64,000 nt of DNA from Balanoglossus misakiensis (GCA_040954595.2 CM082592.2:5114506-5178505); one strand, 5' to 3'; shown: positions 11,801 through 37,584, numbered from the stretch's first letter. Numbers and translations are program-made. The notes: generated by a model not told the origin, from the sequence alone.

Positions 11801-14800
11801 CAAAATATGAAGAATTTTTGAAATTTCGGAAAGTCGAAAATTCGTCATTTTTGGATGATTTTCATGGGCTATAACCCATGATTTTTGTCAAAATATGAAG
11901 AATTTTTGATATTTCGGAAAGTCGAAAAATCGTCATTTTTGGATGATTTTCATGGGCTATAACCCATGATTTTTGTCAAAATATGAAGAATTTTTGATAT
12001 TTCGGAAAGTCGAAAAATTGTCATTTTTTTATGATTTTCATGGGCTATAACCCATGATTTTTGTCAAAATATGAGGAATTTTTGATATTTCGGAAAGTCG
12101 AAAAATTGTCATTTTTGGATGATTTTCATGGGCTATAACCCATGATTTTTGTCAAAATATGAAGAATTTTTGATATTTCGGAAAGTCGAAAAATTGTCAT
12201 TTTTGGATGATTTTCATGGGCTATAACCCATGATTTTTGTCAAAATATGAAGAATTTTTGATATTTCGGAAAGTCGAAAAATTGTCATTTTTGGATGATT
12301 TTCATGGGCTATAACCCATGATTTTTGACAAAATATGAAGAATTTTTGATATTTCGGAAAGTCGAAAAATCGTCATTTTTGGATGATTTTCATGGGCTAT
12401 AACCCATGATTTTTGTCAAAATATGAAGAATTTTTGAAATTTCGGAAAGTCGAAAATTCGTCATTTTTGGATGATTTTCATGGGCTATAACCCATGATTT
12501 TTGTCAAAATATGAAGAATTTTTGATATTTCGGAAAGTCGAAAAATCGTCATTTTTGGATGATTTTCATGGGCTATAACCCATGATTTTTGTCAAAATAT
12601 GAAGAATTTTTGATATTTCGGAAAGTCGAAAAATTGTCATTTTTTTATGATTTTCATGGGCTATAACCCATGATTTTTGTCAAAATATGAGGAATTTTTG
12701 ATATTTCGGAAAGTCGAAAAATTGTCATTTTTGGATGATTTTCATGGGCTATAACCCATGATTTTTGTCAAAATATGAAGAATTTTTGATATTTCGGAAA
12801 GTCGAAAAATCGTCATTTTTGGATGATTTTCATGGGCTATAACCCATGATTTTTGTCAAAATATGAAGAATTTTTGATATTTCGGAAAGTCGAAAAATCG
12901 TCATTTTTGAATGATTTTCATGGGCTATAACCCATGATTTTTGTCAAAATATGAAGAATTTTTGATATTTCGGGAAGTCGAAAAATCGTCATTTTTCGAT
13001 GATTTTCATGGGCTATAACCCATGATTTTTGTCAAAATATGAAGAATTTTTGATATTTCGGAAAGTCGAAAAATCGTCATTTTTCGATGATTTTCATGGG
13101 CTATAACCCATGATTTTTGTCAAAATATGAAGAATTTTTGATATTTCGGAAAGTCGAAAAATCGTCATTTTTGGATGATTTTCATGGGCTATAACCCATG
13201 ATTTTTGTCAAAATATGAAGAATTTTTGATATTTCGGAAAGTCGAAAAATCGTCATTTTTGGATGATTTTCATGGGCTATAACCCATGATTTTTGTCAAA
13301 ATATGAAGAATTTTTGATATTTCGGAAAGTCGAAAAATCGTCATTTTTGGATGATTTTCATGGGCTATAACCCATGATTTTTGTCAAAATATGAAGAATT
13401 TTTGATATTTCGGAAAGTCGAAAAATCGTCATTTTTGGATGATTTTCATGGGCTATAACCCATGATTTTTGTCAAAATATGAAGAATTTTTGATATTTCG
13501 GAAAGTCGAAAAATTGTCATTTTTGGATGATTTTCATGGGCTATAACCCATGATTTTTGTCAAAATATGAAGAATTTTTGATATTTCGGAAAGTCGAAAA
13601 ATTGTCATTTTTGGATGATTTTCATGGGCTATAACCTATGATTTTTGTCAAAATATGAAGAATTTTTGATATTTCGGAAAGTCGAAAAATTGTCATTTTT
13701 GGATGATTTTCATGGGCTATAACCCATGATTTTTGTCAAAATATGAAGAATTTTTGATATTTCGGAAAGTCGAAAAATCGTCATTTTTGGATGATTTTCA
13801 TGGGCTAAAACCCATGATTTTTGTCAAAATATGAAGAATTTTTGATATTTCGGAAAGTCGAAAAATTGTCATTTTTTTATGATTTTCATGGGCTATAACC
13901 CATGATTTTTGTCAAAATATGAGGAATTTTTGATATTTCGGAAAGTCGAAAAATCGTCATTTTTGGATGATTTTCATGGGCTATAACCCATGATTTTTGT
14001 CAAAATATGAAGAATTTTTGATATTTCGGAAAGTCGAAAAATCGTCATTTTTGGATGATTTTCATGGGCTATAACCCATGATTTTTGTCAAAATATGAAG
14101 AATTTTTGATATTTCGGAAAGTCGAAAAATCGTCATTTTTGGATGATTTTCATGGGCTATAACCCATGATTTTTGTCAAAATATGAAGAATTTTTGATAT
14201 TTCGGAAAGTCGAAAAATCGTCATTTTTCGATGATTTTCATGGGCTATAATCCATGATTTTTGTCAAAATATGAAGAATTTTTGATATTTCGGAAAGTCG
14301 AAAAATCGTCATTTTTCGATGATTTTCATGGGCTATAACCCATGATTTTTGTCAAAATATGAAGAATTTTTGATATTTCGGAAAGTCGAAAAATCGTCAT
14401 TTTTCGATGATTTTCATGGGCTATAACCCATGATTTTTGTCAAAATATGAAGAATTTTTGATATTTCGGAAAGTCGAAAAATCGTCATTTTTCGATGATT
14501 TTCATGGGCTATAACCCATGATTTTTGTCAAAATATGAAGAATTTTTGATATTTCGGAAAGTCGAAAAATCGTCATTTTTGGATGATTTTCATGGGCTAT
14601 AACCCATGATTTTTGTCAAAATATGAAGAATTTTTGATATTTCGGAAAGTCGAAAAATCGTCATTTTTGGATGATTTTCATGGGCTATAACCCATGATTT
14701 TTGTCAAAATATGAAGAATTTTTGATATTTCGGAAAGTCGAAAAATCGTCATTTTTGGATGATTTTCATGGGCTATAACCCATGATTTTTGTCAAAATAT

Positions 14801-17112
14801 GAAGAATTTTTGATATTTCGGAAAGTCGAAAAATTGTCATTTTTGGATGATTTTCATGGGCTATAACCCATGATTTTTGTCAAAATATGAAGAATTTTTG
14901 ATATTTCGGAAAGTCGAAAAATTGTCATTTTTGGATGATTTTCATGGGCTATAACCTATGATTTTTGTCAAAATATGAAGAATTTTTGATATTTCGGAAA
15001 GTCGAAAAATTGTCATTTTTGGATGATTTTCATGGGCTATAACCCATGATTTTTGTCAAAATATGAAGAATTTTTGATATTTCGGAAAGTCGAAAAATTG
15101 TCATTTTTGGATGATTTTCATGGGCTATAACCCATGATTTTTGTCAAAATATGAAGAATTTGTGATATTTCGGAAAGTCGAAAAATTGTCATTTTTGGAT
15201 GATTTTCATGGGCTATAACCCATGATTTTTGTCAAAATATGAAGAATTTGTGATATTTCGGAAAGTCCAAAAATCGTCATTTTTGGATGATTTTCATGGG
15301 CTATAACCCATGATTTTTGTCAAATTATGAAGAATTTTTGATATTTCGGAAAGTCGAAAAATCGTCATTTTTGGATGATTTTCATGGGCTATAACCCATG
15401 ATTTTTGTCAAAATATGAAGAATTTTTGATATTTCGGAAAGTCCAAAAATCGTCATTTTTGGATGATTTTCATGGGCTATAACCCATGATTTTTGTCAAA
15501 ATATGAAGAATTTTTGATATTTCGGAAAGTCGAAAAATCGTCATTTTTGGATGATTTTCATGGGCTATAACCCATGATTTTTGTCAAAATATGAAGAATT
15601 TTTGATATTTCGGAAAGTCGAAAAATCGTCATTTTTGGATGATTTTCATGGGCTATAACCCATGATTTTTGTCAAAATATGAAGAATTTTTGATATTTCG
15701 GAAAGTCGAAAAATCGTCATTTTTGGATGATTTTCATGGGCTATAACCCATGATTTTTGTCAAAATATGAAGAATTTTTGATATTTCGGAAAGTCGAAAA
15801 ATTGTCATTTTTGGATGATTTTCATGGGCTATAACCCATGATTTTTGTCAAAATATGAAGAATTTTCGATATTTCGGAAAGTCGAAAAATTGTCATTTTT
15901 CGATGATTTTCATGGGCTATAACCCATGATTTTTGTCAAAATATGAAGAATTTTTGATATTTCGGAAAGTTGAAAAATTGTCATTTTTGGATGATTTTCA
16001 TGGGCTATAACCCATGATTTTTGTCAAAATATGAAGAATTTTTGAAATTTCGGAAAGTCGAAAAATTGTCATTTTTGGATGATTTTCATGGGCTATAACC
16101 CATGATTTTTGTCAAAATATGAAGAATTTTTGATATTTCGGAAAGTCGAAAAATCGTCATTTTTGGATGATTTTCATGGGCTATAGCCCATGATTTTTGT
16201 CAAAATATGAAGAATTTTTGATATTTCGGAAAGTCGAAAAATCGTCATTTTTGGATGATTTTCATGGGCTATAACCCATGATTTTTGTCAAAATATGAAG
16301 AATTTTTGATATTTCGGAAAGTCGAAAAATCGTCATTTTTGGATGATTTTCATGGGCTATAACCCATGATTTTTGTCAAAATATGAAGAATTTTTGATAT
16401 TTCGGAAAGTCGAAAAATCGTCATTTTTGGATGATTTTCATGGGCTATAACCCATGATTTTTGTCAAAATATGAAGAATTTTTGATATTTCGGAAAGTCG
16501 AAAAATTGTCATTTTTGGATGATTTTCATGGGCTATAACCCATGATTTTTGTCAAAATATGAAGAATTTTTGATATTTCGGAAAGTCGAAAATTCGTCAT
16601 TTTTGGATGATTTTCATGGGCTATAACCCATGATTTTTGTCAAAATATGAAGAATTTTTGATATTTCGGAAAGTCGAAAATTCGTCATTTTTGGATGATT
16701 TTCATGGGCTATAACCCATGATTTTTGTCAAAATATGAAGAATTTTTGATATTTCGGAAAGTCGAAAAATTGTCATTTTTGGATGATTTTCATGGGCTAT
16801 AACCCATGATTTTTGTCAAAATTTGAAGAATTTTTGATATTTCGGAAAGTCGAAAAATTGTCATTTTTGGATGATTTTCATGGGCTATAACCCATGATTT
16901 TTGTCAAAATATGAAGAATTTTTGATATTTCGGAAAGTCGAAAAATTGTCATTTTTGGATGATTTTCATGGGCTATAACCCATGATTTTTGTCAAAATAT
17001 GAAGAATTTTTGATATTTCGGAAAGTCGAAAAATCGTCATTTTTGGATGATTTTCATGGGCTATAGCCCATGATTTTTGTCAAAATATGAAGAATTTTTG
17101 ATATTTCGGAAA
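8801..17112 (-). repeat. 88-bp satellite tandem array, inverted arm (~94 monomers)
   Basis: From 8801 the sequence is the reverse complement of the same monomer (gtcaaaatatgaagaatttttgatatttcggaaagtcgaaaaat(t/c)gtcatttttggatgattttcatgggctataacccatgattttt). Confidence 0.99.
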
Positions 17113-17141
17113 ATCATCTAAAAATGACGGTTCTTCGACCA

Positions 17142-17631
17142 AAACTTTGGTGATTTTGTCATTTTTGGACATTTTTCATGGGTTATAGCCCATGAAAATT
17201 GTCAAAATATGACAAATTCTTGACTTTGCAAACTTTGGTGATTTTTGTCATTTTTGGTCATTTTTCATGGGTTATAGCTCATGAAAACTGTCAAAATATA
17301 TCAAATTCTTGACTTTGCAAACTTTGTTGATTATGTCATTTTTGGACATTTTTCACGGTTTATAGCTCATGAAAATTGTCAAAATATGACAAATTCTTGA
17401 CTTTGCAAACTTTGGTAATTTTGTCATTTTTGGACATTTTTCACGGTTTATAGCTCATGAAAATTGTCAAAATATGACAAATTCTTGACTTTGCAAACTT
17501 TGTTGATTATGTCATTTTTGGACATTTTTCACGGTTTATAGCTCATGAAAATTGTCAAAATATGACAAATTCTTGACTTTGCAAACTTTGGTGATTTTGT
17601 CATTTTTGGACATTTTTCATGGGTTATAACC
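17142..17631. repeat. Diverged 88-bp satellite subfamily (~5.5 copies) at the array edge
   Basis: Unit aaactttggtgattttgtcatttttggacatttttcatgggttatagcccatgaaaattgtcaaaatatgacaaattcttgactttgc starts at 17142, 17230, 17319, 17407, 17495 and 17583; it shares the catgggttatagcccatg core and the gtcaaaatatga and gtcatttttgga blocks with the main satellite. Confidence 0.95.
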
Positions 17632-17654: not shown

Positions 17655-19612
17655 GACGAGAAAAATCAGATCATGACTGCAAGTATGTGGGTCAAACAGG
17701 TAAGCGAACAAAATAGTCGATTTGTCTAAGCTTGTACATATTACCAATTTGTTTAACTGTAGTGTAGTGTGGTGTTGTGTGGTGTGGTGTACTGCTCTGT
17801 ACTGTAATGTGCAGTACTGTATATTGCAGCGTAGTGTAGTGCACTGTAGTGTAGGGTCCACATTAACATTTTCTTTGGTTAAACAATCGTATAAAATGTT
17901 TTCGTCGGGAGCCTACAATAAGCAAACTATTACACCCAATTTTGTCCACTTCAGAAATGGCGAGATTACCAGTTACAATGGAACCCAGACCATTATGGAG
18001 GGCTGAAGATACTACACGTGCCGGCAAACATGCTGTGGATGCCCGACATTGTTCTCTACAATAAGTACTAAAAATAATTACATTATATTTTCACGGCGAC
18101 AATTATTAGATCAAGCCGTATACGTTATATCTACCTCAAGCAGAAAACGTTGTACCTTGTTGTTTAACCTGTAGTAACTTCATGTTTTTTTTTATTCTTC
18201 AGTGCCGACGGCCCCTACGTTGTCACAATGATGACAATGGCCTTGATTTCGCACGACGGGACCGTCTACTGGGTGCCGCCGGCCATCTACAAGAGCTCCT
18301 GTCAGATCGACGTGTCGTACTTCCCCTTCGACGAGCAGCGCTGCAAGATGAAATTCGGCTCCTGGAGCCACGACGGCGACCACGTGGACCTGGCGGCGAT
18401 GTCGTCCGTCATCGAGCAGGAGGACTACTGGGAGAACGGCGAGTGGGAGATCGTGGAGTCGCCGGTGGAGAGGCACGCCATCAAGTACCCGTGCTGCGAC
18501 GAGATCTACGTCGACCTGACCTTCACGTTGGTGGTGCACAGGAAGCCGCTGTTCTACATAGTGACGCTGGTCCTCCCGTGCCTCCTGATCTCCGTGCTGA
18601 CGGTGTTCGTGTTCTACATCCCGTCGGACTGCGGCGAGAAGATCACGCTGTGCATCTCCGTCCTGCTGGCGCTCATCGTCTTCCTGCTGCTCATCTCCGA
18701 GATCATCCCGCCGACGTCGAAGACCATCCCGCTGATCGGCAAGTACCTGCTCTTCACCATGGTGCTGGTCAGCCTCTCCATCGTCATCACCGTCGTCGTG
18801 CTCAACATCCACCACCGCACCTCGTCCACGCACACCATGCCGTCGTGGGTGCGCCACCTCTTCATCGAGATCCTGGCGAGGCTGCTGTACATGCAGAGGC
18901 CCGCGGACGTCGCCAAGAGACCCAAGGGCCGGCTGACGGACATCTTCAAGAAGTGCAAACTGAAAACGCTCAAGATTCGCCGGCGCGACAACGAGATCCC
19001 CAAACCCGAGCCCGGGTCAGTGGAGGCGGGGTACCAGCCCATCCCGCTGCTGCTGGCGAATAAGCTAAACGAGAAAATCCCGCCGTCTCTCCGCGAGGAG
19101 ATAGAATGGAGAGAGAGACAGGTGAAAAAAGAACTCGAAGAAAAGAAAGAAATGGAGTACGACAGCATTCCTGATGAACTTAGGGAAGCACTGACCAATA
19201 TCAATTATATTGTCGATCATTTAAAACAGGAAGATGAGGATGATGAGGTAGGCATAATACAAACCTGTAGACTATCTCTGGCTAACATGTTATCAACACG
19301 TTATCATGTGGAATTTTTTTCATCTTTCAGACAAGTATCTCGTCCTAGTCAATCTCTGTACTCTCTCTCTCTCTCTTTCTCTCTATCTCTCTCTCTCTCT
19401 CGCAGTTCAGTGAAGACTGGAAGTTCGTCGGCATGGTGATAGACAGAATATTTCTGTTGACCTTCGTGCTCGTCTGCATCACGGGTACCTGTTCCATCTT
19501 ACTCGCGTCGCCGGTGATATGGGAAAATGGAAGCGAACACAATCGGTATGTTCCAGTGCAGCCAGTCGAACTAGACAGCGGTATTCCCCTTGGCCAAGGC
19601 ATGCTTGGGTGA
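17655..19612 (+). CDS. Nicotinic acetylcholine receptor alpha subunit (Cys-loop, neuronal alpha2-6-like), 5'-partial, four coding exons
   Basis: Exons: 17655-17699 ([15 protein letters not shown], the conserved 45-nt nAChR exon), 17955-18064 ([16 protein letters not shown]...WMPDIVLYN, the conserved 110-nt exon), 18203-19247 (Cys-loop [15 protein letters not shown], loop C YPCCDEIY with vicinal Cys, M1-M3, GEK at the start of M2, cytoplasmic loop), 19406-19612 ([16 protein letters not shown]..., M4, TGA). All introns GT-AG and in frame. Signal-peptide exons are not in the window. Confidence 0.96.
17755..17853. repeat. Degenerate pentanucleotide (GTAGT/GTGGT-like) microsatellite in nAChR intron
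   Basis: tgtagtgtagtgtggtgttgtgtggtgtggtgtactg... has 5-nt periodicity. Confidence 0.8.
19361..19401. repeat. (CT)n tract serving as polypyrimidine tract of the last nAChR intron
   Basis: ctctctct... immediately precedes the cgcag acceptor at 19401-19405. Confidence 0.9.
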
Positions 19613-20390
19613 AGGGCGCGAGGCGAGATCGACCTGCATGCCTGCAAGAAATTAAACACACTGGTGTATCACAACCAAAGATTGGGGGCGCCGTTTACCC
19701 GCACCCCCCCCCCCCCCCGACCGAGAGTGTGTGGAAGTACATTGCAGACTCTATCTCTCACAGTCCCCGGCTCTCGCCGTATGACCAAAGTCGTCGTTTT
19801 GTCGCCATTTCTCATGAATTGTTCATTTAAGAGTTCTGAGCCCAGTAGAAAGAAATAAATGAATCTATTCGTTCGTATTCTACAAGAATTTATTCTTGAA
19901 AATACAAAAATGTTCATACACACGCTACTAATGTACTTGTACGATTCGAAAGTACGCAATAAAATGGCATATAAGTTGTGTTAATGGCACTATCCGATTT
20001 GAGATTCGGATATCACGATACATGTATTTTCCCTCGCAAATAATTATATGGCTACTTTACCAATGTTTTGCGCCCTCAAATAAAATGAAGATAACCCTGG
20101 AACTACAGGAACAGGTTTATGAGCTTAAAATTCAACTATGTATGACGTAATGTCGTAGAAATCGACAGACTGGTTTTGCTATTTAAAACACAGTTACTCA
20201 GCTATGGTCGCACTCGTGTGTGCGTGGCGATGGCCAGATGCAATGTTAGTATCGGGTGCTGCTATAGACGATGTTCTTCGCAGCACTAATACAGAGCTGC
20301 ATGCAAGCCAAATCGTCAACCCAGCAGCACCTGCTACAATCATTGCAGCTAAGAGACGGCCACTGTGTTTTCCTAAAAAACTCCACGGGT

Positions 20391-21040
20391 TTATTGATAT
20401 TCAGCCAACAATTCCTTGATTTCTTCCATCTCCAGCTTTTCATCCAGTTCTCGCTTGGCATCGGGGGTAAGTGTGTCCAACATTCTCACCAAGTTCCGAA
20501 GCTTACGCGCGGTGACAATGGAACCTGGCAACGAAAAGTAATTCGTGAAGGTTTAAAGGTATACGGTCACCTATGCAAATATAGCCAGAGTTACCATGGC
20601 AAACTGAGATTTTCAGTGGGTGACAAACGCGAAAAAAAAGAGCGCCACCATACGTTCTTAAGAACACTCAAATATGCCGTTTCTGCCATATATGGGCGTA
20701 TGTAAATTGGTTGTGACCGTATACCTTTAAAGCATGACACCTAAAGCTAAGGGTGATCGTTAGCGGGCGCTTTGGGGTTCGCAAAAAAACATGTACATGT
20801 ACAAAACAACTAACCTCGGGCTGGAAAGCACATCCCAGTATGCATATATTCGATGTAACGACATGTCTCTCCGTCCGGACAGTCGACACGACTGCAGTCG
20901 TCTTAATAATGAAATTAGGAAAGAAAACATATAGTGAGTTACATGTATGACAGAGAGAGGTATGACAATAGGTAGAATAGTGTTGTTGTTGTTGTCGTCA
21001 TTGTTTTTGTTGTTCTTGTTGTTAATTGACGTTATTGTTT

Positions 21041-21121
<81 letters not shown>

Positions 21122-21248
21122 TGTTTTGTTTTGTTCTGGCGAAATACTCACCACGCTTGATAGTATCCCTTTCTGGAAAGAGTATCCCAGCGTTTACGAC
21201 GAGAGGAATTGCGATCAGCAGCAGGGCAAACATGTAAAGGTGCGACAT
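20391..21248 (-). CDS. Secreted Cys-rich peptide precursor, paralog 1 (105 aa; signal peptide, KR, one FOLN-like 4-Cys peptide, helical/acidic C-terminal tail)
   Basis: Exons 21248-21152, 20901-20815 (AAG acceptor) and 20524-20391, phase-1 introns with GT donors, 318 nt: MSHLYMFALLLIAIPLVVNA-GILFPERDTIKR-DDCSRVDCPDGETCRYIEYMHTGMCFPAR-GSIVTARKLRNLVRMLDTLTPDAKR-ELDEKLEMEEIKELLAEYQ*. A non-coding first exon ends at donor 21823. Confidence 0.8.
20557..20726. mobile_element. 170-bp MITE with TTAA target duplication (Kolobok-like termini), in an intron of peptide paralog 1
   Basis: TTAA(20553-20556)|AGGTATACGGTCAC ... GTGACCGTATACCT|TTAA(20727-20730): perfect 14-bp TIR. RR...YY termini with a TTAA TSD fit Kolobok rather than piggyBac (CCY termini). 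Confidence 0.8.
21043..21120. repeat. (GTT)n microsatellite
   Basis: About 26 perfect GTT units, intronic in peptide paralog 1. Confidence 0.98.
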
Positions 21249-21941
21249 CGTGGATCCTGTCAATAAAATCATATCATACCGTTCATTGCCCTAATTATAT
21301 GAATGGTCCTACAGCGCGCATGCACACACTCTCACTTTAATCTCTTTCTGATGATTGACCTCTTCCACAGAAAAGGGCGGTGGACAATGAACGACCTCCT
21401 GAACGCCCTTGGTTTCAGATCTCCTTAGAAAATCAACCAAATACAGCATTTATCTAAATTCTTTTTGCATAAAAAAAAACTATTGGGAATGATCCTTGCA
21501 GGGTACGTTGACTCTTAGCATTTTTATTCATGTAAGGAAAACAATTGTCTTCGGACGGCCACGATCTCCATCTGCCCGGTCTACATACAGGACTGCCGAT
21601 TAAAAGCCCTTTGAAGCCGTCAACTCTGGTGAAAGCAACAGGTGTCTCGCAGACGCTAGACCGTCGTTAAGGTTGGGCGGTTGTGATTTAACCGAGATTT
21701 AACGAGCTGCACCCATAAGATATTTACGAAATGGTGTTGGGGCCGTCATCTGGTATACATGTAATGGCTTCGCGATTAACTATGGAGGCAAACGTTTCCC
21801 AAAAATATTAAGCAATGCTTACCCGGTTGTCGAAATTGTCCCGAGAGTTTGTTCTTCTCAGCGAGCAGCAGCTACTTGGTGGTCGTCGTCGCCGGACTTG
21901 ATCCTATACAGCAACCCCGGCTGAAACTCACAACACCCCTA

Positions 21942-22058
21942 ATATATATCCCTCTGAGTACGACCAAGGGTCTTTGCTCCGCCCACCAACGTATACCAGC
22001 CAATGAAATCACTGACATTATTGGTTTACCCGAAAAATACATTAGCGCTTGTCATTGG
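21942..22058 (-). promoter_or_regulatory. Pol II promoter of peptide paralog 1 (TATA, GC box, three CCAAT boxes)
   Basis: TATATA at ~21942-21949, GGGCGG at 21979-21984, CCAAT/ATTGG at 22000-22004, 22020-22024 and 22054-22058. It lies upstream of a ~90-nt non-coding exon ending in G|gtaagc (21823); all motifs are conserved in the paralog. Confidence 0.7.
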
Positions 22059-23839
22059 TGATCTCTCGGGCATGCATACCTGGGACCGAGCAGCTTCGTC
22101 CTCGTTCGGTCTGCCATGTGATAGTTACAAACACTAGTTTAATTTTCTATTCTACACTTTTTCGTGGATTTTCCTCTCACTCGCAAATTTACCATAATGT
22201 GTCGAAAATAACGTTTTGAAAGGGTAACCAACACGACGTTTTTTTGTAGAATTGACATGTTATAAAATTAAACGGTATTTATCTTCCCACTTTTGCGTCA
22301 TTTAAATACGGCGTGTACTTCGCAAAAACAACAAAAAACAGCAGATTCCATAGTCTTTGAAATCCCATGGCGCAATCTAGACCACTCCCAACAAAAAGAA
22401 CGTTCCAGTTCATATACCCCCACTTAAGAATATCGACCTGTAATTTTTAGATTCAAGTCACGTTTTGCATTCTTTTTTATGCGCTATTCTGGTGTGTTAT
22501 TGACGCCAATATTTCATGACAATTCTTGCAGTCACGTGGGAATGCGACCTTTCTGACGTACAAGCTTCCCTTGCTAATGTGACTTGTGGCATGTTGATAA
22601 AAAAAACTCGTCAAATTCAATATTTGCTGTGTTTAATCCGATCGCACACAAAAGATTAATTTACCCAATCAAAGTGAACATCTTGAATTTCGCATCCGAT
22701 AGGGGTAATACACTGGAACAGTATGAGGAGAAATGTAGCGTCGACGAAAACTACAACCTCCCAAGGTGTCTTCGCAAAGGACCGTGCCACACCCAAAACC
22801 AGACTCCCATGACGACCCCTGTTCTAAATCATGTATGCAGTACTTCGCATAGTGTAGCAAACACTCGAAATTTTAATGGCCACGGTGTGTTGACAAAGCC
22901 TCCTGTTCAGTAGAGGTGAATGAAGCGAACGGCATTCAGTGCAGAATTTAAGCTCATCTCTCTCTCTCTCTCTCAAATTGATGCCGTCGACCTTTCTCAA
23001 CAATATACGCTCCAATTACATTTCGCCCAACGCACAACCAGTGTAAACACTAGGGACCTGTTCCTTTGCACTCGAATACACAAAGCGCTACATGGTCATG
23101 CACGTAAAACACTGCGAGGTGAGTGTATTGATGTGAAGTAAGTTAACACTCATGGAAACGGTTGCAAGCATTCACTGTGACGGGCGTGACCGGTCGCATT
23201 CCAAGTTATATCGGTTCATGCTCGAAAACTATAATAGAGCTTTGAAACATGACTGATGTATAGAGATTGATTTACTTGTAAACTTGTAAGCGAAATGTAA
23301 CCTCAACAGTAAAAAAAGTAACCCCAAGCGATTACGGCTTGCAATGGTCGACAAGAGTATTCTTTTGCGAATCAATAGGTCTTTGTATAGCTTTTTAAAC
23401 TCGCCCACTCTCAAAACAAACCTAGCCTTAAAAATTTTGTTAAAGGTACACGACGTGTATCCAAAGGGCATTCGCCCCCCGAAAAACAAGTATCGTTTGG
23501 CGTTGATGGCGCACATTCAATCATTGGAGGTGGACCCGGCAGAAGATGATGTTCATGCACTAAATTAGTCCCAGTTTGATGTCTTTCCATCAGTCCACCA
23601 GTCTGGTAGGAAAATGTCCTCATAAGACAAAACAAGTCCGCGCATTTCCTGTGTCATCGAGTCGTGTAACACATAGATACTCTGTCACACACACTCACAA
23701 TACTTCATATACAGGCTTTCAAATGACAAAATAAGGTTAATGGTTAAATTTAAATTTAATCTACTTAAATGTCCTTTGAAGTGGTTAGTGATGATATCAG
23801 CCTATATTTCCTGTTGGGTCACGGTGACTCCGATTACTT

Positions 23840-26591
23840 TCAGTCACGCTGATGTTTAAGTACCAGCAATTTCTTCACTATTTTCTTTTCCTCTGCGGTT
23901 AGGTCAAGACTTTCCAGCGTCCGAACCAACTCGCTTTTCGCTGCAGACGAAAGGCAAGGCCATCAAATTAGGAAAGTTTGACTCTGCCGTGGAATCTTCG
24001 GTCAAGTGGTGATGATGCATGGTTCAAAAGCACTTTCAGAAATTAAATAACCGGTGGGAAGGGGTCAGTGATTTTGTAAACACACACACACCAAAGCACA
24101 GCGCAGAAAATCCCCCCCCCCCCCCCGTCAAAGGCCGGAGTATTAAGTGACAAGTCCCAAGAATTTGCTTTCGGAACTACTTTGGCCGAAATTTTAAATT
24201 GACTATATATCCTACTCCACCACCTGCAGCGAGGCTGGACAGCAGTGGAAGGGTTAACTGATACATTATGATGGTGCTTACCTGCCACGCAGTAAGCGTC
24301 GCCATGGTGGTTCTCTAAACACGTCTGACCTTCAGGACAATCATGGCGCCAGCAGCCATAACCTGCAAAGGACGGTGATGTGTCGTTACTAGATATATCC
24401 ATCCGCCTATGCATAAATAGTCTGAGATGCAAAGTTTTCATGCTCTCTTGTAATTAAAACCAATGGTTCCTGACATATTAAACTGTTACACTGGTAACAA
24501 ATTCCGGGACTTATTTCTGGTAAAGCATCTAACAATCGAAACGCTAGTAGATATTTACGTTTGTCACTGCTACGAAGTCCAGGGGCATCAGCTGTAAAAT
24601 GAAAAAAAAAAACAATAACTTAGGTGATGTTTTTATTTTTGTATGCATGATACTATAAGTGTGTAACATTGTTGTTTGGTAGTCACAAATTATGACGAAC
24701 CCGCTAAATGTGGAAAGCGACCTATTTGTGTGTAGAATAGCCGGCTACTACATCATACACCCAGACTGAATAGATCATGATGCGTGGAAATACTCTTGTG
24801 CTCTTACTTACTGTTTACGCAATAAGCATCTCCATATTGGTTCTCCAAACAGGTTTGTCCCTCGTCACATTCATGACGCCAGCAGCCATAACCTGCAAAG
24901 ATGTCGATTTGTGGTCATTTGAATAAATCATTCACCCATGCAATAAGAAAGTATGGATTCTTATACCTTGGTTTGACTCCTCAATGCTATCAATGTCTAT
25001 CATATAAGTATTTCTCCACTTTCCCTGAATAAATCACTGTGGTGTAACTTAAAACGCCACACGCCATCTCAAAAACTGATGCCGTGCGAATATACGTAGT
25101 GGTTATATACCATCGCTAAAGAAATGCGGAAAAATAGAAAAGATTGGAGATATTTACGTTTTTCATTGCTTCGAGTTCCAGCAGATTTTTCTGTAACGCA
25201 AAAAGAAAAGAAAACACGATGATAATATACGTAATTACGTGCATATTTTGTAAACAGCATTCGGTTCGTCAATAGGCTGGTTACAACGTAGCCATCAGAA
25301 AGAGAGAGAGAGAACACAAACAAACAAACAAACAAACAAACAAACAAACAAACAAACAAACAAACAAACAAACAAACAAACAAACAAACAAAATTACATT
25401 CACGGTATGAGTGATAGTAGAAACTAAATAACCTAGATATCATTGAATGAAATACACCGTTTCTTCAATATTCTTTTGGGTTCGAATCCTCCAGGACTCT
25501 CCATCGCCTGTAGCCAGGCTGGACAGCAGCGGTGGAAGGGTTAACTTATATATTATGATGGTGCTTACCTGCCAGGCAGTAAGCGTCGCCATGATGGTTC
25601 TCTAAACACGTCTGACCTTCAGGACAATCATGGCGCCAGCAGCCATAACCTGCAAATGACGGTGATGTGTCGTTACTAGATATATCCATCCGCGCACGCA
25701 TAAATAGTCTGAGATTCAAAGTTTTCTATGTATCCATGTAATTAAAATCACCGGTTCCGGGGCATGATGATTACTTTGGTAATGTATTCCGTGACTTAAT
25801 TCTGGTAAAGCATCTAACCAATGAATCGAAACGCTAGTAGATATTTACGTTTGTCACTGCTACGAACTCCAGGAGCATCAGCTGTAAAATGAAAAAAAAA
25901 AGCATGATGTTTTTATTTTTGTATGCATGTTAAGTGTGTAGCATTATTGTTTGGTAGTTGCAAATTAAGACAAAACAATTCTGGTGCCTATTGTATGTAG
26001 AATAGCCGGCAACTACATCATACACCCAGACTGAATAGATCATGATGCGTGGAAATACTGGATCTCTTGTGCTCTTACTTACTGTTTACGCAATAAGCAT
26101 CTCCATATTGGTTCTCCAAACAGGTTTGTCCCTCGTCACATTCATGACGCCAGCAGCCATAACCTGCAAAGATGTCGATTTGTGGTCATTTGAATAAATC
26201 ATTCATGCCAAAAAGAAAGTATGGATACTATTTGTTTAATTTTGTATGGGATCTTGCAACTACATTGGCCAAAAGAAAGCGCATGACGTCACAGAAACCG
26301 AATATCTATTAGAATATCTGAAAATTTTCAGACCAGAATCTAAACAAAGGACGGTGATATTTACGTTTGTCGCGATCGATGTCTCGATCTCCAAGAGTGT
26401 CTTCTGTAAAATAAGAATAAACATGATTATGACGACGACGACGACGATGATATTGGTGGTGATGTGGCGGTGATATTGGAATATCTCAGTTACTCACCAC
26501 TTTCCATGGTTTCCCTATTAGGAAAGAGTATCCCGGCGTTTACGACGAGAGGAATTGCGATCAGCAGCAGGGCAAACATGAAACGACGCAT
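23840..26591 (-). CDS. Secreted polyprotein peptide precursor, paralog 2 (218 aa; signal peptide, four KR-preceded FOLN-like 4-Cys peptides, helical tail)
   Basis: Ten coding exons, all introns phase-1 GT-AG: 26591-26498, 26403-26365, 26163-26083, 25881-25849, 25649-25569, 25190-25158, 24892-24812, 24591-24559, 24362-24282, 23940-23840 (657 nt). Product: MRRFMFALLLIAIPLVVNA-GILFPNRETMESEDTLGDRDIDRD-KR-YGCWRHECDEGQTCLENQYGDAYCVNTDAPGVRSSD-KR-YGCWRHDCPEGQTCLENHHGDAYCLAEKSAGTRSNE-KR-YGCWRHECDEGQTCLENQYGDAYCVNTDAPGLRSSD-KR-YGCWRHDCPEGQTCLENHHGDAYCVAAKSELVRTLESLDLTAEEKKIVKKLLVLKHQRD*. Confidence 0.85.
24230..26225. repeat. Internal tandem duplication (period ~1.28 kb) of a two-peptide cassette, introns included
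   Basis: ~24230-24957 and ~25510-26225 are near-identical in exons and introns (e.g. gaatagccggc...ctacatcatacacccagactgaatagatcatgatgcgtggaaatact); offsets between homologous exons are 1271-1290 nt. Confidence 0.92.
25317..25392. repeat. (CAAA)n microsatellite
   Basis: About 18 CAAA units, intronic. Confidence 0.98.
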
Positions 26592-27628
26592 CGTGAATCC
26601 TGTCAATGAAATCGTAGGATAACTTTTACTGCACTGATACAATTAAAAGTGAATAGACATATAGCGCGCGCGCACACACACACACACACGCACACAGATA
26701 CGAACTTACATGGAGGGAGATACAATGTATAGGGAAAGGTCACACATCACTAAATTCGTAGACAAAGTGGTCTACATATTTACTATCGATTAAAACTCTT
26801 TGATCTTCTAGTGTCTATGCTTGAAGCCGCCAACTCTGGTATAAGCAACAGGTACCCTAGACCACAGACAGCGTGTCTTATCACAAAAAATCTCACTGAC
26901 CCAACCACCAAAACAGGGAGACCCGACGTTAGGGCGGGTGGTTTTAGCTAGAAGTTGTGGTCACCTTGACCCCTGTGGCCAAGTCACTTCTGATTATTTC
27001 ATAGGTCTGTAACAACACGTAGGGACGATATGCAACTTTTCGGGGAAAATTGCCTCAGAATAACAGTCACTTGACCGGTAAATATGTGTCCCTGTAATGC
27101 GTACGATTCACGGTAAAGCTGCGAGAACTTGCGATTCGCTACTCAATCTCACGGTTTCTTTGAATAAAGCTACCCTATATCTTTTGATTTACGGTTGGAG
27201 TGTCATTTTTTAACTTCACACGCAAAAATCGCATGTGTAGTGCCTCACACCGGAGCCCTGGAAAACTCTGCATCAAACGAACCTGATAACACATTCACGC
27301 CACTCAGTTTGTCTCCTTACCGAATGAATTTATAGGGGTCGGAGTGACTTTAGGTGTCGGGGGTCGGAACGGCCAGGGGTCGAAGTGACTAGAAACCGTT
27401 GAACGAGCCCCACCCATACCAAATTTACGAAACTTCGTTATGGCCGTCATTCTGGCTACGCGATTACCTATGGAGTTAAACTTTTTCCAACAGTATAAAT
27501 CAATGCTTACCTGGTTGTCCAAATTGTCCCGAGAGTCTGGTCTTCTCAGCAAGCAGCAGCTACTTGGAGGTCGTCGTCGCCGGACTTGATCCTATACAGC
27601 AACCCAGGTTGAAGCTCACAACACCCCA

Positions 27629-27754
27629 ATATATATCCCTCTGAATACAACCAAGGCTCTTTGCTCCGCCCACCAACGTATACCAGCCAATGAAATCACT
27701 CAAGCTCACTGCATTGATTGGTTTACCCGAAAAATACAAAGCGCCGGTCATTGG
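27629..27754 (-). promoter_or_regulatory. Pol II promoter of peptide paralog 2 (TATA, GC box, three CCAAT boxes)
   Basis: TATATA ~27629-27636, GGGCGG 27666-27671, CCAAT/ATTGG at 27687, 27717 and 27750; non-coding exon ending at donor 27511 (G|gtaagc). 27500-27812 closely matches 21812-22121. Confidence 0.7.
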
Positions 27755-28004
27755 TGAACCTTCGAACGTGCATACCTGGAACATCTTCGTCCTCGTTCGG
27801 TCTGCCATGTGATGGACAGGAAATATATAGCCTGTCTTTAATTATCATTGCACTATTGACGTGAATATACATGTATATGAAAATGCAGGAATGTAACATC
27901 TCAATTTGCACTAACATCATTTCTTTGACCTCCACAAGGTGTCTTTGCAAGTGACGACACCCTACCAAAAACAGACACACCACGACGTACCCTGTTATAA
28001 ATCA

Positions 28005-28644
28005 GAATGAAGTGGTCAAGAAGCACCAACTCTTGGACACAGTGTTCTTCACTACAAACTAATTTTATTTCCGACGTTTCGTGGGCTTAATCCCACTTCA
28101 TCAGGGTAAAAATAAGAGGTTTAAACTAAAATACGCAAAGGCGGATAGGAGGCAAAGGAACACTGTACTCACTTGCCGGGAGCCAAAGTGGAGCTGACAG
28201 AGATTTTGAATGTATGGCAGGTGTTGCGTAAGACTGACAAGTCGGGGTGATTTACATAAAATGCGGGAAAATTATGATGTGTAAATTACCTTGTAGTGAC
28301 TAAAAATAGCTGGAGTACATACAGAAAGCCAAGCTGCGAGAGACTGTTGTAGCAAAAACTTGTAGTAATAAATGGAATAAAATGAACGCCTACTAAAAAC
28401 AACTCAAGATAAGATAAAATATCGAAGGAAACGGTAAACGGGTTTTACAAAATTGCAGGTATAGTGTCCAATGAAAAAATCCACTTTGTTTCTGTAATGT
28501 CCCTGGTGTGTTTATCATCTTTACACAACGATTCCAAGATGACCACTTTCGTGTTTTTTAACAGAGTGGTTGGGTTGATTAAAATGTTGGCTCACAAATA
28601 GGGCTGGATTCTCAGGGTCGTTGTTTTTACATTTTATCATACTT
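28005..28644 (-). mobile_element. 5'-truncated Penelope-like retroelement (GIY-YIG C-terminal remnant plus 3' region), 13-bp TSD
   Basis: Flanked by ctgttataaatca at 27992-28004 and 28645-28657. Minus strand encodes VSQHFNQPNHS (frameshift) NTKVVILESLCKDDKHTRDITETKWIFSLDTIP, matching the Penelope endonuclease tail pattern (V..HFN...HS...ILE...R...E..WI..L.T..P). The paralogous empty site cctgttctaaatcatgtatg is at ~22818-22837. Confidence 0.85.
28062..28115 (-). ncRNA. Minimal type-I hammerhead ribozyme motif (Penelope-associated)
   Basis: Minus strand ...ttttacc CTGATGA a gtggg-attaag-cccac GAAAC GTC ggaaataaaa: both catalytic boxes, a 5-bp stem II, the palindromic ACGT in place of stem III, and a GUC cleavage triplet; stem I is imperfect. 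Confidence 0.75.
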
Positions 28645-31418
28645 CTGTTATAAATCATGTATGTAGCACTCCATACAGTGTAGCAAACACCCGAACTTTT
28701 AATGTAGTGTTGACAAAGCCTTCTTTTTAGTTCGGTAGTAAAAGGTGAATACAATACGACATTCAGTGCAGCTCTCGTCGACCTTTAATTTCTCAACAAT
28801 ACGCACACGCCCAAACTACATTTCGCCCAATTTGTGTTAACACGGGAGACGGCCTAGTCCCTTGCGTAGAGAAAGCGCTGATCATGCACATACAATACCG
28901 TGCGCTGACCTTGTAAAACCACAGGGCTAAAGTTGAAACAGAATTGAACAGATGTATTGGGGTGCTGTGATGCTGTATGCATGTAAGGGAATTGTAACCC
29001 CACGAGACTGAGGTATCTTAAGCAGTGGTCGAGAAAGGTATGCTTTCGCGAATCAATAGGTTATTGTATGGCTTTTTACACCCACCCACTCTCAAAACAA
29101 AGTTGGCCTTTAAATGTTTACACGGAACAAGAATACATCACGGTGGGCGGCCACCGCATTCGTCGCGTTCTGATTTAAGAAAAACATCAGAATCGATAAT
29201 AACATGCAGGAATCGTTATTTCAGATTACACAGTAGTTTAATTTATATAAAGATTATTTCCATCGCTAAATATGTTGTGGAGAAGTGTTCTTGATAAAAA
29301 TTGATACAAACGCTCATTTATATTGGGATAGATGTATTGTCGACTTTTTCAAATATTCTGGCTTGTTTATGCCTATGGCTTGGTGATGGTGATGGTTGTT
29401 TATCGAGGTGAATGTACTGTGAGAATTCCCCCTTCACTGGAATACTTTTCTATTACAATGTATATGTGTTCTTTAAAGTTAATTTAGTGTTTAAGTTAGT
29501 CAGCGTACCATAACGTGGTTGAGGCCTAAAATAAGCTGGAACATTGGTTGAATGGGCGAATTTCTCTTGAAAAGGTCACCGCGCAAAACATGCGTGCGAT
29601 TTAGTTGTTTAGGATCATTGGCCGTGACTAACGTATGGATGAACGTTGACTCCGGCTGGAATCATTTCTACACACCCCCGAAGACGTCAGCAAAACGTCC
29701 GTGTCGAGTGTTACTACGGACGGGTGGCGGTTGTATTATGATGGTGACGTCATTGGTTAAGGTTGTTTGCGTGATTTGCATTTAACCGTGACGAAGTGGC
29801 TGTTCCGTAGGATATAAAAATTTCAGGAGCGGCACTTGCTGTCCTCGTTGAAAGGCCATGGGTCACTTATATGGGACGGCTTCAAAAGACAGAACTGACC
29901 GATATAATGTACATGATTAAAATTAGTGCGTTGGTTGTGAGTGGACCGTAAATGGTTGTCCATCTTTTCATGAAAACGTGTCTCGATTTCGAAGCGAGCG
30001 TCTCCTCCTCGTTCGAGTTACGGTCATAAATGTGTTCCCATTTGCATGTCCAGCTGACACAGATGGGCGGTCGGCCGGTCCTAATGTGCGGCGCAAACAT
30101 TCTACGCGATCAATCAATTGAATGCCCCTTGTACTTGTGTTCTCATCTTGACACCTCCCTTATAATTCCAGGCTTGCTTTAGTCATTATTGGACAGTCAA
30201 CAGATTGTCTTATAAAGGGACAAAGTCTCTCTCTCTCTGCCCTTTTTCCATTAATTATATTTTGATACAAGACACCGTTTATGTTATTCTACATGTGGAT
30301 ATATAGAAAAAACTCAATCGGGGACAAATTTTCAGCAAAATCATAGTCTTCTAAACCTTCCAATTATTTGCTCATAAATAGTATCGGGAGTCTAGCTTTT
30401 TGAAAACAACGTAAAAAGCATGTGTAGGGTGGGTTCAGTGGCTATCGGTTTGTTGGAAGTTTTCTCTACCTTGAGAAAGCGGCGTGAGTTTGCCGGTACG
30501 GCGAATTGAATGTCCAACAAAGCAACGTCTAGACAATTTCGTTGATCACAGAAAGGGTGGTGAGGTGACATTCAAGAAAACTGAGTTGTGACAAAGACAA
30601 GTTTTGACAGAAGAGATCATGTCAAACAATAACACAAGGGCAGACGCCACTGGGAAGAGACGTCTGAGGACGAAGGGGGAGTCTTTTCATTCTCGTCCTT
30701 CCTTGCGAAAAATCGGTTAGGTTTAAAAGGGAACTCAGCGATCGTAATCACATGTATCCCACGAGAGTTCAGTGTTTGTTTTTGATGGTATCGCCGTTAG
30801 GCTTTCCAACCAAAATTGAGTCTGTATTACGCGTTCTCTTCAGAACTGATGTTTTTCAAATTGATGATGGTGATGGTGATGATGATGATGGAGGAGGAGG
30901 AGACAGAGGAGGAGGAGGTGTGGAAATTGTACCTTGACGACCACTCGCCGACCTCTGTGTCATCGACCTCTTCAAATCAAAGCTTTGCCTGCGCGAAAGT
31001 TTTACCATAGAATGAGCGAGGTCACATGCCGGGACCTCCATTTATTATTGGTAACTGTCAGCTTCGGAACCCAGAGTTGAACGGCAATGACTTAAGATCA
31101 GTACTTTGTGTCCCCCATGGATCCGTTCATTTGTAGCCTGGGCTGAAATTCGCAATGGTGGTTGCACATGTAGGGCGCCATCTTGTGATGAATAAGTCTT
31201 GCTTTCAACACAACATTACCATTATTATATTTATTTCTCCATTTGCCATTTAAATGATGACAACAGATTTGCATTTAACATGATCAAAACACCGAATAAA
31301 TTATTTTAAAAAATCGGTCTGAAAAAGCTGGTATAAAACCCCATAGCTGATACATATAAATTACTAAATGTTTTAAAAGTAATTGACAATATTTGAATTT
31401 TGTCCAAGCATATCGCGT

Positions 31419-33965
31419 TCAATATTTATTGACTCCTTTTCTGAAGTCGTCCACGAAGTCCAGGTGCAACTTTGGAATAAATCTTTCAACCAATGATTTC
31501 GGCGAAAGATGTCCTTCAAACTGGGTAACGTTAACGGCTTTAGTCTTGTTCGGATTTCTGTAAATGCAAGTAGTTTGAAGAAAATTGCTATTTTATTGCA
31601 GTAAACACTTACACTGAGAGTATATCGAGTATGTCCGCGTATAATTGCGTATCGGTGCAGGCTGAAGTCATCAAGCTTGTTCCAAGACAACTTTCCGTAC
31701 CATACAATACTGACCCCAAAAGGCCAAAAGAGAGCGACTTTGTCCCCCGTTTGTGCTATTTGGCACGGTTGTCATGGGTTGTTAGTCCTGTGTCACATGA
31801 CAACATCCTCCATTATAAACTGCCTATAGCCACGCGAGATCTCGCAACGTCTCGTAGGTACCGGAGAGTAAGCTCAGTATCTGGTACTTACCCGTCGACT
31901 GCATAGAAGAGAAAAGCTGATGGATAATTCGTTCCCCTGACGACACCTTTCGGCGCTGGGTGGTCGGCATGCTCAATGCTGGAAACTGCAAATCAAAATC
32001 GGACAATTAATAGACCATGTCCCGAACTCTACGAGACCCTGCGAGATCACACGTGGTTAGACAGTTTACATTGGAGGACAATGGTGTCATCTGACACAGA
32101 ACAAACCCCGGACGGCCCATCGTGTTAAACGGCACAAAAGCTACGTTTTTGTAAAACGTTCCACCTTTTCTCGTTTCATAAACCGTTTGAATTGTATTGC
32201 TTGATTTTCAAACCACGGAAAAAGTGGTCTTAGTTCTTCTCTAACAAAATTAAAACTTCAATTTATGTATGTACTTACAATATACTATAGTAAGGCCACT
32301 ATCTGGCATTCTTCTTATACCAAAAACGTCTACGAAATCCCGCGGTGATACCAAACCTAGCATCAAACTCGCCGACGACGTCCGAAGAAGCTTGGCGTCC
32401 TGCCGTGTAAACGAGATAATCTCTTTTTTTTGACCAGTTTCTTTGATGTTATTCGAACTTCATTTTTCCTTCGGTACGTGCAGCGTTAAGTTTGACGTTT
32501 AAATTCGTGATTATCTTCAACGATGCTATGTGTAATCTAGACATTAACATTAGTATACATTTATGCTGTATTCAATGATTTCACTCATCACCACCCCACC
32601 CCCGATACAATAATAATATAATACCATGGTGATCAATGCAGTGGATAAAACACTGTACCTCTGAAATTGTTTCAAGTACAGTCATTTCCTTGATGGCCCT
32701 GTCGAATTGGACATGTTTCTCCGTGTCCCAAACCAAATCCAAACATTTTTCGGGCGAGGCGTCTACGCTGTACACAGCTTTGTACCTGAGAAAACGTTAA
32801 CACAAATCGTGATGACTGGTCCAGTTACACTGGCAGAAAATTCCCCTTTGGTAATTCGATCAGACTAAATGATCAACTGAAACAACGTTTCGTCCTGTGT
32901 CCTGTGGAACGCACGCCGCTCTCCGAGTAAAATCGGGGAGTTTTTGCGAAAAGAATTTCTGAAGACGAAAGCGAGTAATCCTCTCAGGCTGACCACTAGT
33001 GGCGCGCCATGAATCAAAATACACAAGCCATGGTGACTGCGGGCGGGGGGTCAGCAAGAGAACCCTTTCACACAAATCCAGGTGTAGAGAGACGTGGGAT
33101 GTGATGCAGATATGCTCAAGTTATAGTAATAATATCTCAGACGGTGAAGGATGTTAATACATATAAAAATTATACTGACTTACAGGTAACCGTTGAAGTC
33201 TGGAGACGGCTTGTTGTACACTTGCACGTCATTCTGTGACAAGATTAAGAAAATTATGTTACTCCAATCAAGAGAGCAAGAAGACAGTGTCCACAAACAC
33301 TTAGCACGACGTCGATACATGCATAATATATACACCACGTGACATACTAGTAGCCAATCACTGCCAATGTCGTGTTCATAATCCCGACCTTTGAGATGGA
33401 TTTGCATATCAATACTTCATCTGCAGTGGCTCTTACATAACAGGGACAGACTTGTGATGATTTCTTTTTCATAACAGACGTCCATAACACGACCAATCCA
33501 TCAGCATGCTACCAAACGTGACTATACACATGTATAATAACGAGTGTCTTGAAAATGTCTCCGGAAAAGCGAATTTAACAATCTGTCGAATGGCTTTCAC
33601 ACACAAAAACGCAATACAAAATGTACGTCCATCGTAATAACACTGGTTGATTAAAAATGTCGAGACTATGGACCACTGCACTGCACAAGATCGGCTAATC
33701 TTATATGTCGAGAATCGCTCTCATAATTCGTGTAAATACCCGTCAGTAGCTGGGGTGGGTTCTTTCCGTATAAATGAAAGCACATACATGTATTTCGTTG
33801 AAGCACACGCCGTCCCTTGCCGTGGCTATACAGCAGTAAATGGTCGTGGAAATAAAATGTACAACCTGAACTTACCCCGCTTTTGCAGAGTACCCAGTCT
33901 TCCTCGGCGTTGTACTTCAGTACTTTGTTGACAGTTTCGGTGGCGATCGCGCCGTAGTCAGCCAT
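31419..33965 (-). CDS. START-domain lipid/sterol transfer protein, STARD4/5/6 subfamily (STARD5-like), 206 aa, six exons
   Basis: Exons 33965-33876, 33233-33184, 32785-32659, 32399-32279, 31985-31892, 31557-31419 (621 nt, in frame). Motifs KPSPDFNGYLYKA, MLGLVSPRDFVD, SIEHADHP...VRGTNYPS, NPNKT...PKSLVERFIP; START-only architecture. Confidence 0.92.
31750..32139. repeat. Imperfect ~110-bp inverted repeat pair flanking START exon 5
   Basis: 31750-31857 (...ctgtgtcacatgacaacatcctccattataaactgcctatagccacgcgagatctcgcaacgtctcgtag) matches the reverse complement of 32029-32139 (...ctgtgtcagatgacaccattgtcctccaatgtaaactgtctaaccacgtgtgatctcgcagggtctcgtag). Confidence 0.85.
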
Positions 33966-35280
33966 GGTGCGTTGAGAAGTACAAATTGAAGCTTCAGTTA
34001 GGCTGAACCGAGATTGTGATTCCGTCTTGTGTTATATCGATCGTCTGGATTTCGTGGTCAGCGTCTGTTTGACTTCGACCCACAGACGCCGGAGTCATAT
34101 ATATGTCCGCAGAGCTGCATGATGATGTCAGGTTGCGTCACGCATATTGCCCAAGTGCCTGTGGTTTGACCAATCACGGATGTATTGCGTAACCGTAAAT
34201 CTTTCTGTGCCAATCGTACAGCAAGCAGGCTCGGGGAGGCTATGCCCACGCAGAAGGCGAAGACATTTGTCTCCTAATCTGTGACGTGTGCACAGATACC
34301 TGATGTTGTGTACTTCGGTCTCATTACGCAACATCGATGACGCGTTTGTTCCCACGTGACTTAATCATGAAATGACGAAATTATGATGAGTATTTCTGTA
34401 GGCGATTGATTGAGAAGTGTAGATAATCGAAAATAGAGGGGAGACCGATTGAGACTATAAGGTCTGGCATCTCTGCTCGGAGAGGCCAGGCTTTTCTTTT
34501 CGTCGGACTATATTCATGTAAAATACCTGCGAGGAGTGGGTCAATAAAAGTCACGTTTAGTATAAGCCGCCGTAGACCTGGACACGCGGTTACAGTTCAA
34601 CATGGCCTTCAATTGGTGACGTGAATTCAGTAAAACCACGAATCACGACTGATGACGAACTCGTTAGGGGTGTACTGCGAGACAATTGTATACGGGAAAT
34701 GGTGTCTTGAAAAAGATGCAAAGAATCTTGTTTATTAAGCATTTTTTTAGTGAAGGAAGTCCCTTCTACAGTACAATATAAAGAAAGTGTGTGATACCAT
34801 ATTATTTCACTGTAATTACATCACCAATCTTTTAACTGTGAAATGGTATAGTTTGATCTGTGAATGTCTCGATATCCGGTCCTAAGTCAATCAAATCTCA
34901 AACGACTACGACCAACTAATTTGGAATAACAGACTTAATTGTTTTGGGGAGGTCTGGGGATCAATTATATTTCAGACCTTTTTAATGGTATCAATAGAAT
35001 CACATGGACAGTGTTTCAACAAAATGAAAATTAAATGGATGGGGTTGACATTGTCCATTCTTGATAAACTTTAAAAAATCGCGTCTTGTAAGAGTATACA
35101 TAGTATAGACCATATTTATGCTATACTTTTTTATTCACTACTACAATTTGAAGCTCTAATTTAATTTGTAAATGGCATTTTGGTTTAAGGCTATACCGTC
35201 ACCAAACTGGAAAATACGGTCGCCAAATTTGACAACGCGTGGTGTTTATCATCGATCCAGTTACTCTGAGAGTGGTGGTA

Positions 35281-37524: not shown

Positions 37525-37584
<60 letters not shown>

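Follow-up and report, generated by a model that had tools for sequence, protein, structure and literature searches.

What two short genes standing in tandem on the minus strand of an acorn-worm chromosome might encode is the question raised by a 64,000-nucleotide (nt) stretch of Balanoglossus misakiensis DNA (GCA_040954595.2 CM082592.2:5114506-5178505), to which, at its full length, we refer as the window. Both genes are very probably real precursors of a processed peptide family. They follow the plan of multi-copy, convertase-type precursors of predicted two-disulfide hairpin peptides, and the acorn-worm family to which they belong is conserved and apparently undescribed. That the peptides released at Lys-Arg (KR) sites act as receptor-binding signals is, judged from sequence, a reading to which we give about even weight.

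The splicing of both genes was predicted from the genomic sequence. When the exons are joined by their coordinates, both coding frames are stop-free, and all 11 coding introns are of the GT-AG type and in phase 1, in agreement with the first-pass annotation of the locus, which had proposed two tandem minus-strand genes spliced in frame. The upstream gene, with ten coding exons (94, 39, 81, 33, 81, 33, 81, 33, and 81 nt plus a last exon), gives a protein of 218 residues with four cysteine modules in the order A-B-A-B that had been foreseen; the downstream gene, with three (97 and 87 nt plus a last exon), gives a protein of 105 residues with a single module. Scored with matrices derived from a neighboring EGF gene, all 13 donors rank at or above the 94th percentile among local GT sites, and 12 of the 13 acceptors rank at or above the 92nd among local AG sites. 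There is no other AG within 45 nt of the sole weak acceptor, an AAG before the downstream module exon (20901; 65th percentile), and a branch-point-like YTRAY lies 17 nt upstream of it.

From its 5′ end, the upstream gene (minus strand throughout, as is the downstream gene) begins with a promoter (27630..27721) containing CCAAT (27721), GC (27671), and TATA-like (27635) boxes, followed by a predicted noncoding exon 1 (27511..27606; start estimated from the TATA box, donor at 27511 in the 99th percentile) that would form an untranslated region without ATG. Exon 2 (26498..26599) carries the ATG (26591), a predicted signal peptide (hydropathy up to 3.1), and the start of the pro-region. Next come the acidic 39-nt spacer exon L0 (26365..26403), ending with the Lys codon and the first base of the Arg codon of an R-x-K-R site; module exon A1 (26083..26163; 81 nt, four cysteines), which is matched by relatives in tblastn with E values down to 2e-11; spacer L1 (25849..25881); module exon B1 (25569..25649; 81 nt); spacer L2 (25158..25190); module exon A2 (24812..24892); spacer L3 (24559..24591); and module exon B2 (24282..24362). 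Spacers L1 to L3 are each 33 nt long and end in a split K/R site, and every KR of this gene is divided by an intron, with K at the end of a spacer exon of 33 or 39 nt and R at the start of the 81-nt module exon. The last coding exon (23840..23940) encodes a Leu/Lys/Glu-rich tail and the stop, with an ATTAAA at 23760.

The downstream gene repeats this layout in shorter form. Its promoter (21944..22024; CCAAT at 22024, GC box at 21984, TATA-like box at 21948) and predicted noncoding exon 1 (21823..21919; start estimated, donor at 21823 in the 95th percentile) lie, like those of the upstream gene, in a shared block that is 82% identical over 435 nt (27399-27813 versus 21698-22122). Exon 2 (21152..21256; ATG at 21248) encodes a predicted signal peptide, a short pro-region, and KR, and is 88% identical over 93 nt to its upstream counterpart. 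The module exon (20815..20901; 87 nt), which has the weakest acceptor of the set, encodes a diverged C-x4-C-x5-C-x10-C and is matched by a Glandiceps relative (E 5e-4). The last exon (20391..20524) encodes an amphipathic tail and a stop that ends at 20391 and is overlapped by an AATAAA at 20395. Signal peptides were assigned by hydropathy alone. Five copies of C-x4-C-x5-C-x9/10-C occur between 17.7 and 40.4 kb, compared with a mean of 0.05 and a maximum of 1 in 200 Markov resamples, a count that does not represent five independent events because the copies are kin. All 16 cysteines of the four-module protein and all 4 of the single-module protein sit inside modules. No further clear copy was found within the window by tblastn with five relatives. 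The genes had at first been described as encoded by micro-exons; in the usual sense of the word this fits the 33- and 39-nt spacer exons and not the 81- and 87-nt module exons.

The first-pass annotation had proposed a peptide family from the window but missed the relatives that other acorn worms have. A profile built from the five modules of the window, searched against 1.84 billion representative sequences, gave seven matches at E ≤ 0.001, five of which share the same build: a hydrophobic N terminus, one to four modules, and a tail. These are a two-module protein of Saccoglossus (XP_002735971; P0055), a four-module and a one-module protein of Ptychodera (P0056 and P0061), a one-module protein of Glandiceps (P0060), and a further relative with three modules (P0057). 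The named relatives span Harrimaniidae, Ptychoderidae, and Spengelidae, and their records are labeled “uncharacterized”; together with the window genes, the precursors range from 105 to 267 residues. The two remaining matches (P0058 and P0059) are long repeat proteins in which no module is flanked by KR, and they were set aside. Word-index searches for homologues of a B-module stretch and of the signal exon returned no match, no relative emerged when a metagenome was scanned for the P0057 contig, and no echinoderm match to the module profile was found, at a sensitivity limited by the short profile. Ptychodera isoforms differ by 11 residues directly after module 1, which would correspond to the skipping of a 33-nt phase-1 exon. 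The family is not named in the open-access literature searched, within that library only, nor in the excerpts covered of PMC4772807, PMC10508912, PMC13554239, PMC13409769, bioRxiv 10.1101/265579, and PMC4280546, and the relatives' accessions and motifs that were tried are absent from the covered parts of the supplements of PMC13554239 and PMC6188537.

Taken over the window and its relatives, the module set comprises 16 modules (isoform P0062 excluded), and KR immediately precedes all 16, across three families, so the putative processing sites read from the window alone held up. A basic residue occupies P6 in 14 of the 16 and P4 or P6 in 15; basic residues at these positions upstream of KR accord with convertase preferences. 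The canonical set, from which the diverged downstream module is excluded, consists of 15 modules (13 distinct) and shares the core [FY]-G-C-x4-C-x5-C-x-E-N-x-aromatic-G-D-[AG]-Y-C across the three families. Position 1 is F or Y, and G2, G20, Y23, and the four cysteines are present in 15/15; E16, N17, and D21 are each present in 14/15, and position 19 is H, Y, W, or F. Modules of the window four-module gene are 48 to 72% identical to those of the relatives, whereas spacers and signal peptides vary among family members. Net charge lies between -4 and 0 in every one of the 16 modules. Metal binding through a His-rich module type, raised at first pass, looks weak: the modules contain 0 to 3 histidines, and the position concerned is aromatic (H/Y/W/F) and not His specific. 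A tree built from the 16 modules was set aside, its support being mostly low.

Comparison of A1 with B1 gave proportions of synonymous (pS) and nonsynonymous (pN) differences of 0.81 and 0.13, respectively (Fisher, 9e-7), indicative of purifying selection; since pN is far below pS, the module exons are both coding and constrained. Spacers L1 and L2 differ at a pN of 0.35, which is not significant, and nevertheless retain K/R. That the A-B unit was duplicated later fits the sequence, because A1 and A2 are identical over 81/81 nt, B1 and B2 over 79/81 nt, and matching introns of the two repeats agree at 64 to 92% of aligned bases. The core of the signal-peptide exon differs between the genes (21152-21248 versus 26498-26591) by one synonymous and no nonsynonymous change, and the flanking introns cannot be aligned; this near identity suggests gene conversion or an unusual constraint. 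Patches of 74 to 79% identity (22756-23433 and 27928-29114), about 5.7 kb apart, lie 1 to 1.5 kb upstream of both genes and are candidates for conserved regulatory elements within the duplicated unit.

The modules were then compared with known folds and domains. AlphaFold2 modeled the window module as a loop that leads into a two-strand hairpin (predicted local distance difference test [pLDDT], 78.5). In the Glandiceps model, the module reached a pLDDT of about 90 and the whole a predicted template modeling score of 0.30; the module is therefore not expected to pack against the tail in a fixed way. The top 10 Foldseek rows were follistatin, SPARC, hevin, or Fstl1 in 9 cases for the window module and in 10 for the Glandiceps model, none at E ≤ 0.001; the top rows superposed with a root mean square deviation of about 0.7 to 1.7 Å over 21 to 26 residues, except for one at 3.0 Å over 32. 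VIA-align gave Z scores of 2.0 to 2.6, the best of them (2.4 to 2.6) to EGF-type chains, and did not list follistatin chains, which excludes nothing. Neither the window exons nor any of six relatives reached the curated cutoff of Pfam FOLN (PF09289), and no Kazal domain was matched in the relatives. The FOLN likeness proposed at first pass stands for the cysteine spacing and, with weak scores, tentatively for the fold, at which level the modules may be regarded as follistatin-N-like two-disulfide hairpins; membership in the Pfam family is not supported by sequence. Cysteine spacing and predicted hairpin resemble the FOLN domains of follistatin, SPARC, Fstl1, and hevin; those domains normally precede a Kazal domain in larger proteins, whereas the window modules lie between KR sites. 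Judged by likeness of fold, the disulfides would pair C1-C3 and C2-C4. In sequence, the module profile matched granulin fragments (E 0.006), cobratoxin (0.2), CREMP (0.24), and Kartesh 2 (0.49/0.55); since unrelated families head this list, the framework is generic. Local EGF repeats often have a similar spacing of their first four cysteines. An origin of the modules from the neighboring EGF exons found no support, as 30, 203, and 296 of 500 shuffles with fixed cysteines reached the modules' EGF-profile scores.

How would such precursors yield receptor-binding signals? The precursor would enter the secretory pathway and its modules would fold as two-disulfide hairpins. A convertase would cut after each KR, exposing an exact aromatic-Gly-Cys N terminus, and the acidic spacer would be trimmed away. 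Target binding would then occur through the invariant N terminus and the E-N-x-aromatic-G-D-x-Y hairpin, and the number of copies would change by duplication of the spacer-plus-module exon pair, which the phase-1 symmetry of these exons permits. Because the N terminus and one face of the hairpin are conserved while the spacers are free to vary and the charge is acidic, the modules would suit a ligand of a conserved partner. Multi-copy neuropeptide precursors likewise combine a signal peptide and variable acidic spacers with conserved peptides that recur behind dibasic sites; here, however, the unit is a 25-residue two-disulfide hairpin without a conserved amidation site. The convertase PC2 is expressed in Saccoglossus (PMC10508912, in part).

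Several points weigh against a signaling role. The argument draws on one kind of evidence, the conservation pattern, from which that role seems likely. Basic residues at both P4 and P6 are missing from P0060, and no conserved dibasic or amidation site follows the module across the 16 modules. KR sites with a basic P6 are also cleaved in non-neuronal cells, so the peptides could come from a cell other than a neuron. KR before each module agrees with the four-peptide release first proposed for the upstream gene, but after its fourth module the next dibasic is a KK deep within the tail; the last module may stay attached to its tail, and four free peptides would need a further cut. In the downstream module, constraint was detected in the first half only (P = 0.003 versus B; P = 0.39 versus A), and the hairpin half is unconstrained. 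As far as the covered parts go, the Saccoglossus nervous-system paper names no such peptide (PMC10508912), and the window modules match no peptide named there or in PMC4772807. Lastly, the sea-star KARTESH occurs in coelomic fluid, is induced by injury, and has no known function, a point that also favors defense; homologues are reported from echinoderms only (PMC11891777, in part).

Indeed, the alternative that survives best is that the peptides are injury, immune, or defense effectors in coelomic fluid or mucus, acting on microbes, on host cells at wound sites, or on predators, which we consider possible but rather doubtful. The two paralogues join near-identical signal cores to very different mature regions, a pattern seen in toxin and skin-peptide families, and the Atlas feature matches, all below 0.9, include spider-toxin clusters at 0.76 to 0.77, which are leads only. 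Unlike cationic antimicrobial peptides, none of the 16 modules carries a positive net charge, and the identity of modules between the four-module gene and three families shows no hypervariability, which makes the fast-evolving toxin entertained at first pass a poor fit for that gene. The sea-urchin exogastrula-inducing peptide precursor, taken at first as the closest analogy, is also ambulacrarian and likewise has tandem cysteine-rich modules and dibasic release, but its modules are six-cysteine EGFs, whereas those of the window have four cysteines. The nearest described peptides are instead the sea-star KARTESH and CHUPA peptides, which have a signal peptide, an acidic stretch, a convertase site, and a four-cysteine peptide and are raised after injury (PMC11891777, in part). 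Both they and the window genes are ambulacrarian and share this precursor plan, with the window signal peptide assigned as stated above. Kartesh 2 also appears in the module-profile list and in both fold searches (rank 12 for the window module, rank 37 for the Glandiceps model), and its alignment with the modules shows two shared stretches, C-P-x-G-Q-x-C and G-x-[AG]-Y-C. The KASH2 peptide of Asterias rubens (PDB 8V2M/8V2U) forms a disulfide-directed beta-hairpin (DDH) with C1-C3/C2-C4 disulfides (PMC11891777, in part). Its last loop, however, has 8 residues versus 9 here and it lacks the E-N-x-aromatic-G-D motif, and KARTESH and CHUPA are described with one mature region (same source, in part), whereas the acorn-worm family has one to four tandem modules and a tail. 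Granulin and cobratoxin, which are unrelated, outscore Kartesh 2 in the profile search, so that match shows no kinship; the sequence evidence for kinship with KARTESH/CHUPA is weak.

Follistatin-N-type modules freed as binders of growth factors, matrix, or glycans could instead tune signaling without a receptor of their own, an explanation that we regard as unlikely. It would account for the lead of follistatin, SPARC, hevin, and Fstl1 in both Foldseek lists and for one Atlas row in which a Ptychodera module falls in a cluster with 61% FOLN carriers (score, 0.75), but the failure of any fold match to reach E ≤ 0.001 and of any sequence to match Pfam FOLN tells against it. In addition, follistatin depends on basic residues to bind heparin, but the modules are acidic. 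The same framework recurs in CREMP and in slime-mold spore-coat repeats (PMC3068167, in part).

These repeats also prompt the view, which seems distinctly improbable, that the precursors stay whole or are cleaved only in part and serve as structural or metal-binding proteins, CREMP-like components from which an egg coat or mucus is built. CREMP and the C4C repeats of slime-mold spore-coat proteins, SP75 included, have the spacing C-x4-C-x5-C-x6-10-C, two disulfides, and tandem modules, much as here (PMC3068167 and PMC12723725, in part), and CREMP is sometimes annotated as follistatin-like (PMC12723725, in part). The downstream module matched the CREMP structure 9PGB at E 1.3e-4, a value summed over four repeats, and P0057 passed the cutoff for CopK, a copper protein (E 8e-6). 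Those proteins, however, are very long, with tens of modules (81 in chicken CREMP) and VWFD/C8 domains (PMC3068167 and PMC12723725, in part), whereas the window precursors are short, with one to four modules and KR before each. The CopK match, found in one of six relatives, was put down to chance, and His content is not conserved. Finally, it is extremely improbable that the gene models are artifacts or that either gene, or both, is a pseudogene. The weak acceptor at 20901 does have a stronger AG 9 nt downstream, use of which would shift the frame, but the frames stay open across 10 and 3 exons, the splice sites are strong, selection is purifying, and annotated relatives map onto the exons.

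The downstream module, only 19 to 42% identical to the other modules, keeps its cysteines but has lost both the aromatic-Gly at its N terminus and the hairpin motif. Its tail resembles that of Glandiceps P0060 at a score reached by 1 of 1,000 shuffles. The likeness between the tails of the two window paralogues, which had been put forward at first pass, did not survive shuffling and is within chance (991/2,000 and 466/1,000). In the simplest history, a P0060-like single-module ancestor would have been duplicated, after which one copy multiplied its module and the other changed its hairpin. Because it kept its cysteines and tail and replaced the conserved hairpin face, the single-module paralogue likely changed its target and may have acquired a new role.

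More tentatively, and as a possibility rather than an expectation, the family could represent an undescribed class of deuterostome signal in which a follistatin-N-type module was freed from its parent protein as a convertase-released ligand with its own receptor and retained across acorn worms, with an ancestor possibly in common with echinoderm KARTESH/CHUPA, dose set by duplication or skipping of phase-1 exon pairs, and a single-module duplicate with a changed binding face. Hemichordates are key to the origins of deuterostome signaling, and their peptide lists are mostly derived from homology; here a defined peptide of 25 residues is amenable to synthesis and to testing in Saccoglossus and Ptychodera. 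A follistatin-N-like fold in a hemichordate counterpart would point to a common ambulacrarian source, and not to convergence, for the sea-star hairpins, whose origin is a question raised in PMC11891777 (in part).

The peptide genes are located between a satellite and a nicotinic acetylcholine receptor gene on one side and, further up, the EGF gene on the other. The satellite (1-17609) is an AT-rich 88-bp repeat in about 200 copies, most about 98 to 100% alike; the copies reverse head-on at about 8800, which makes the array a palindrome of roughly 17.6 kb. The receptor subunit gene (18168-19700, plus strand), convergent with the peptide genes, has a large exon with the CC loop motif and no 5′ exons visible before the satellite; its best matches are from Glandiceps (73%) and Saccoglossus (69%), with the other 52 of 54 rows far lower. 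The records suggest that P0060 and receptor P0001, and likewise P0056/P0061 and receptor P0008, lie on the same chromosome; the Saccoglossus scaffolds differ. On the other side, a spliced minus-strand gene (31900-33963) has, by eye, what we take from its motif to be the look of a START lipid-transfer domain; one exon tested had no Pfam match. The likely secreted product of another spliced minus-strand gene (35280-38535) has a coiled-coil stretch at its N terminus and a Trp-rich domain, and the pieces tried had no significant Pfam match. Beyond it lies an element (38640-39381) resembling a miniature inverted-repeat transposable element; its terminal inverted repeats are 57 nt long and 91% complementary, and inverted arms lie further inside. 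The EGF gene (40500-64000, minus strand) is fibropellin-like and encodes at least 61 EGF modules, each apparently in its own phase-1 exon, with recurring subtypes.

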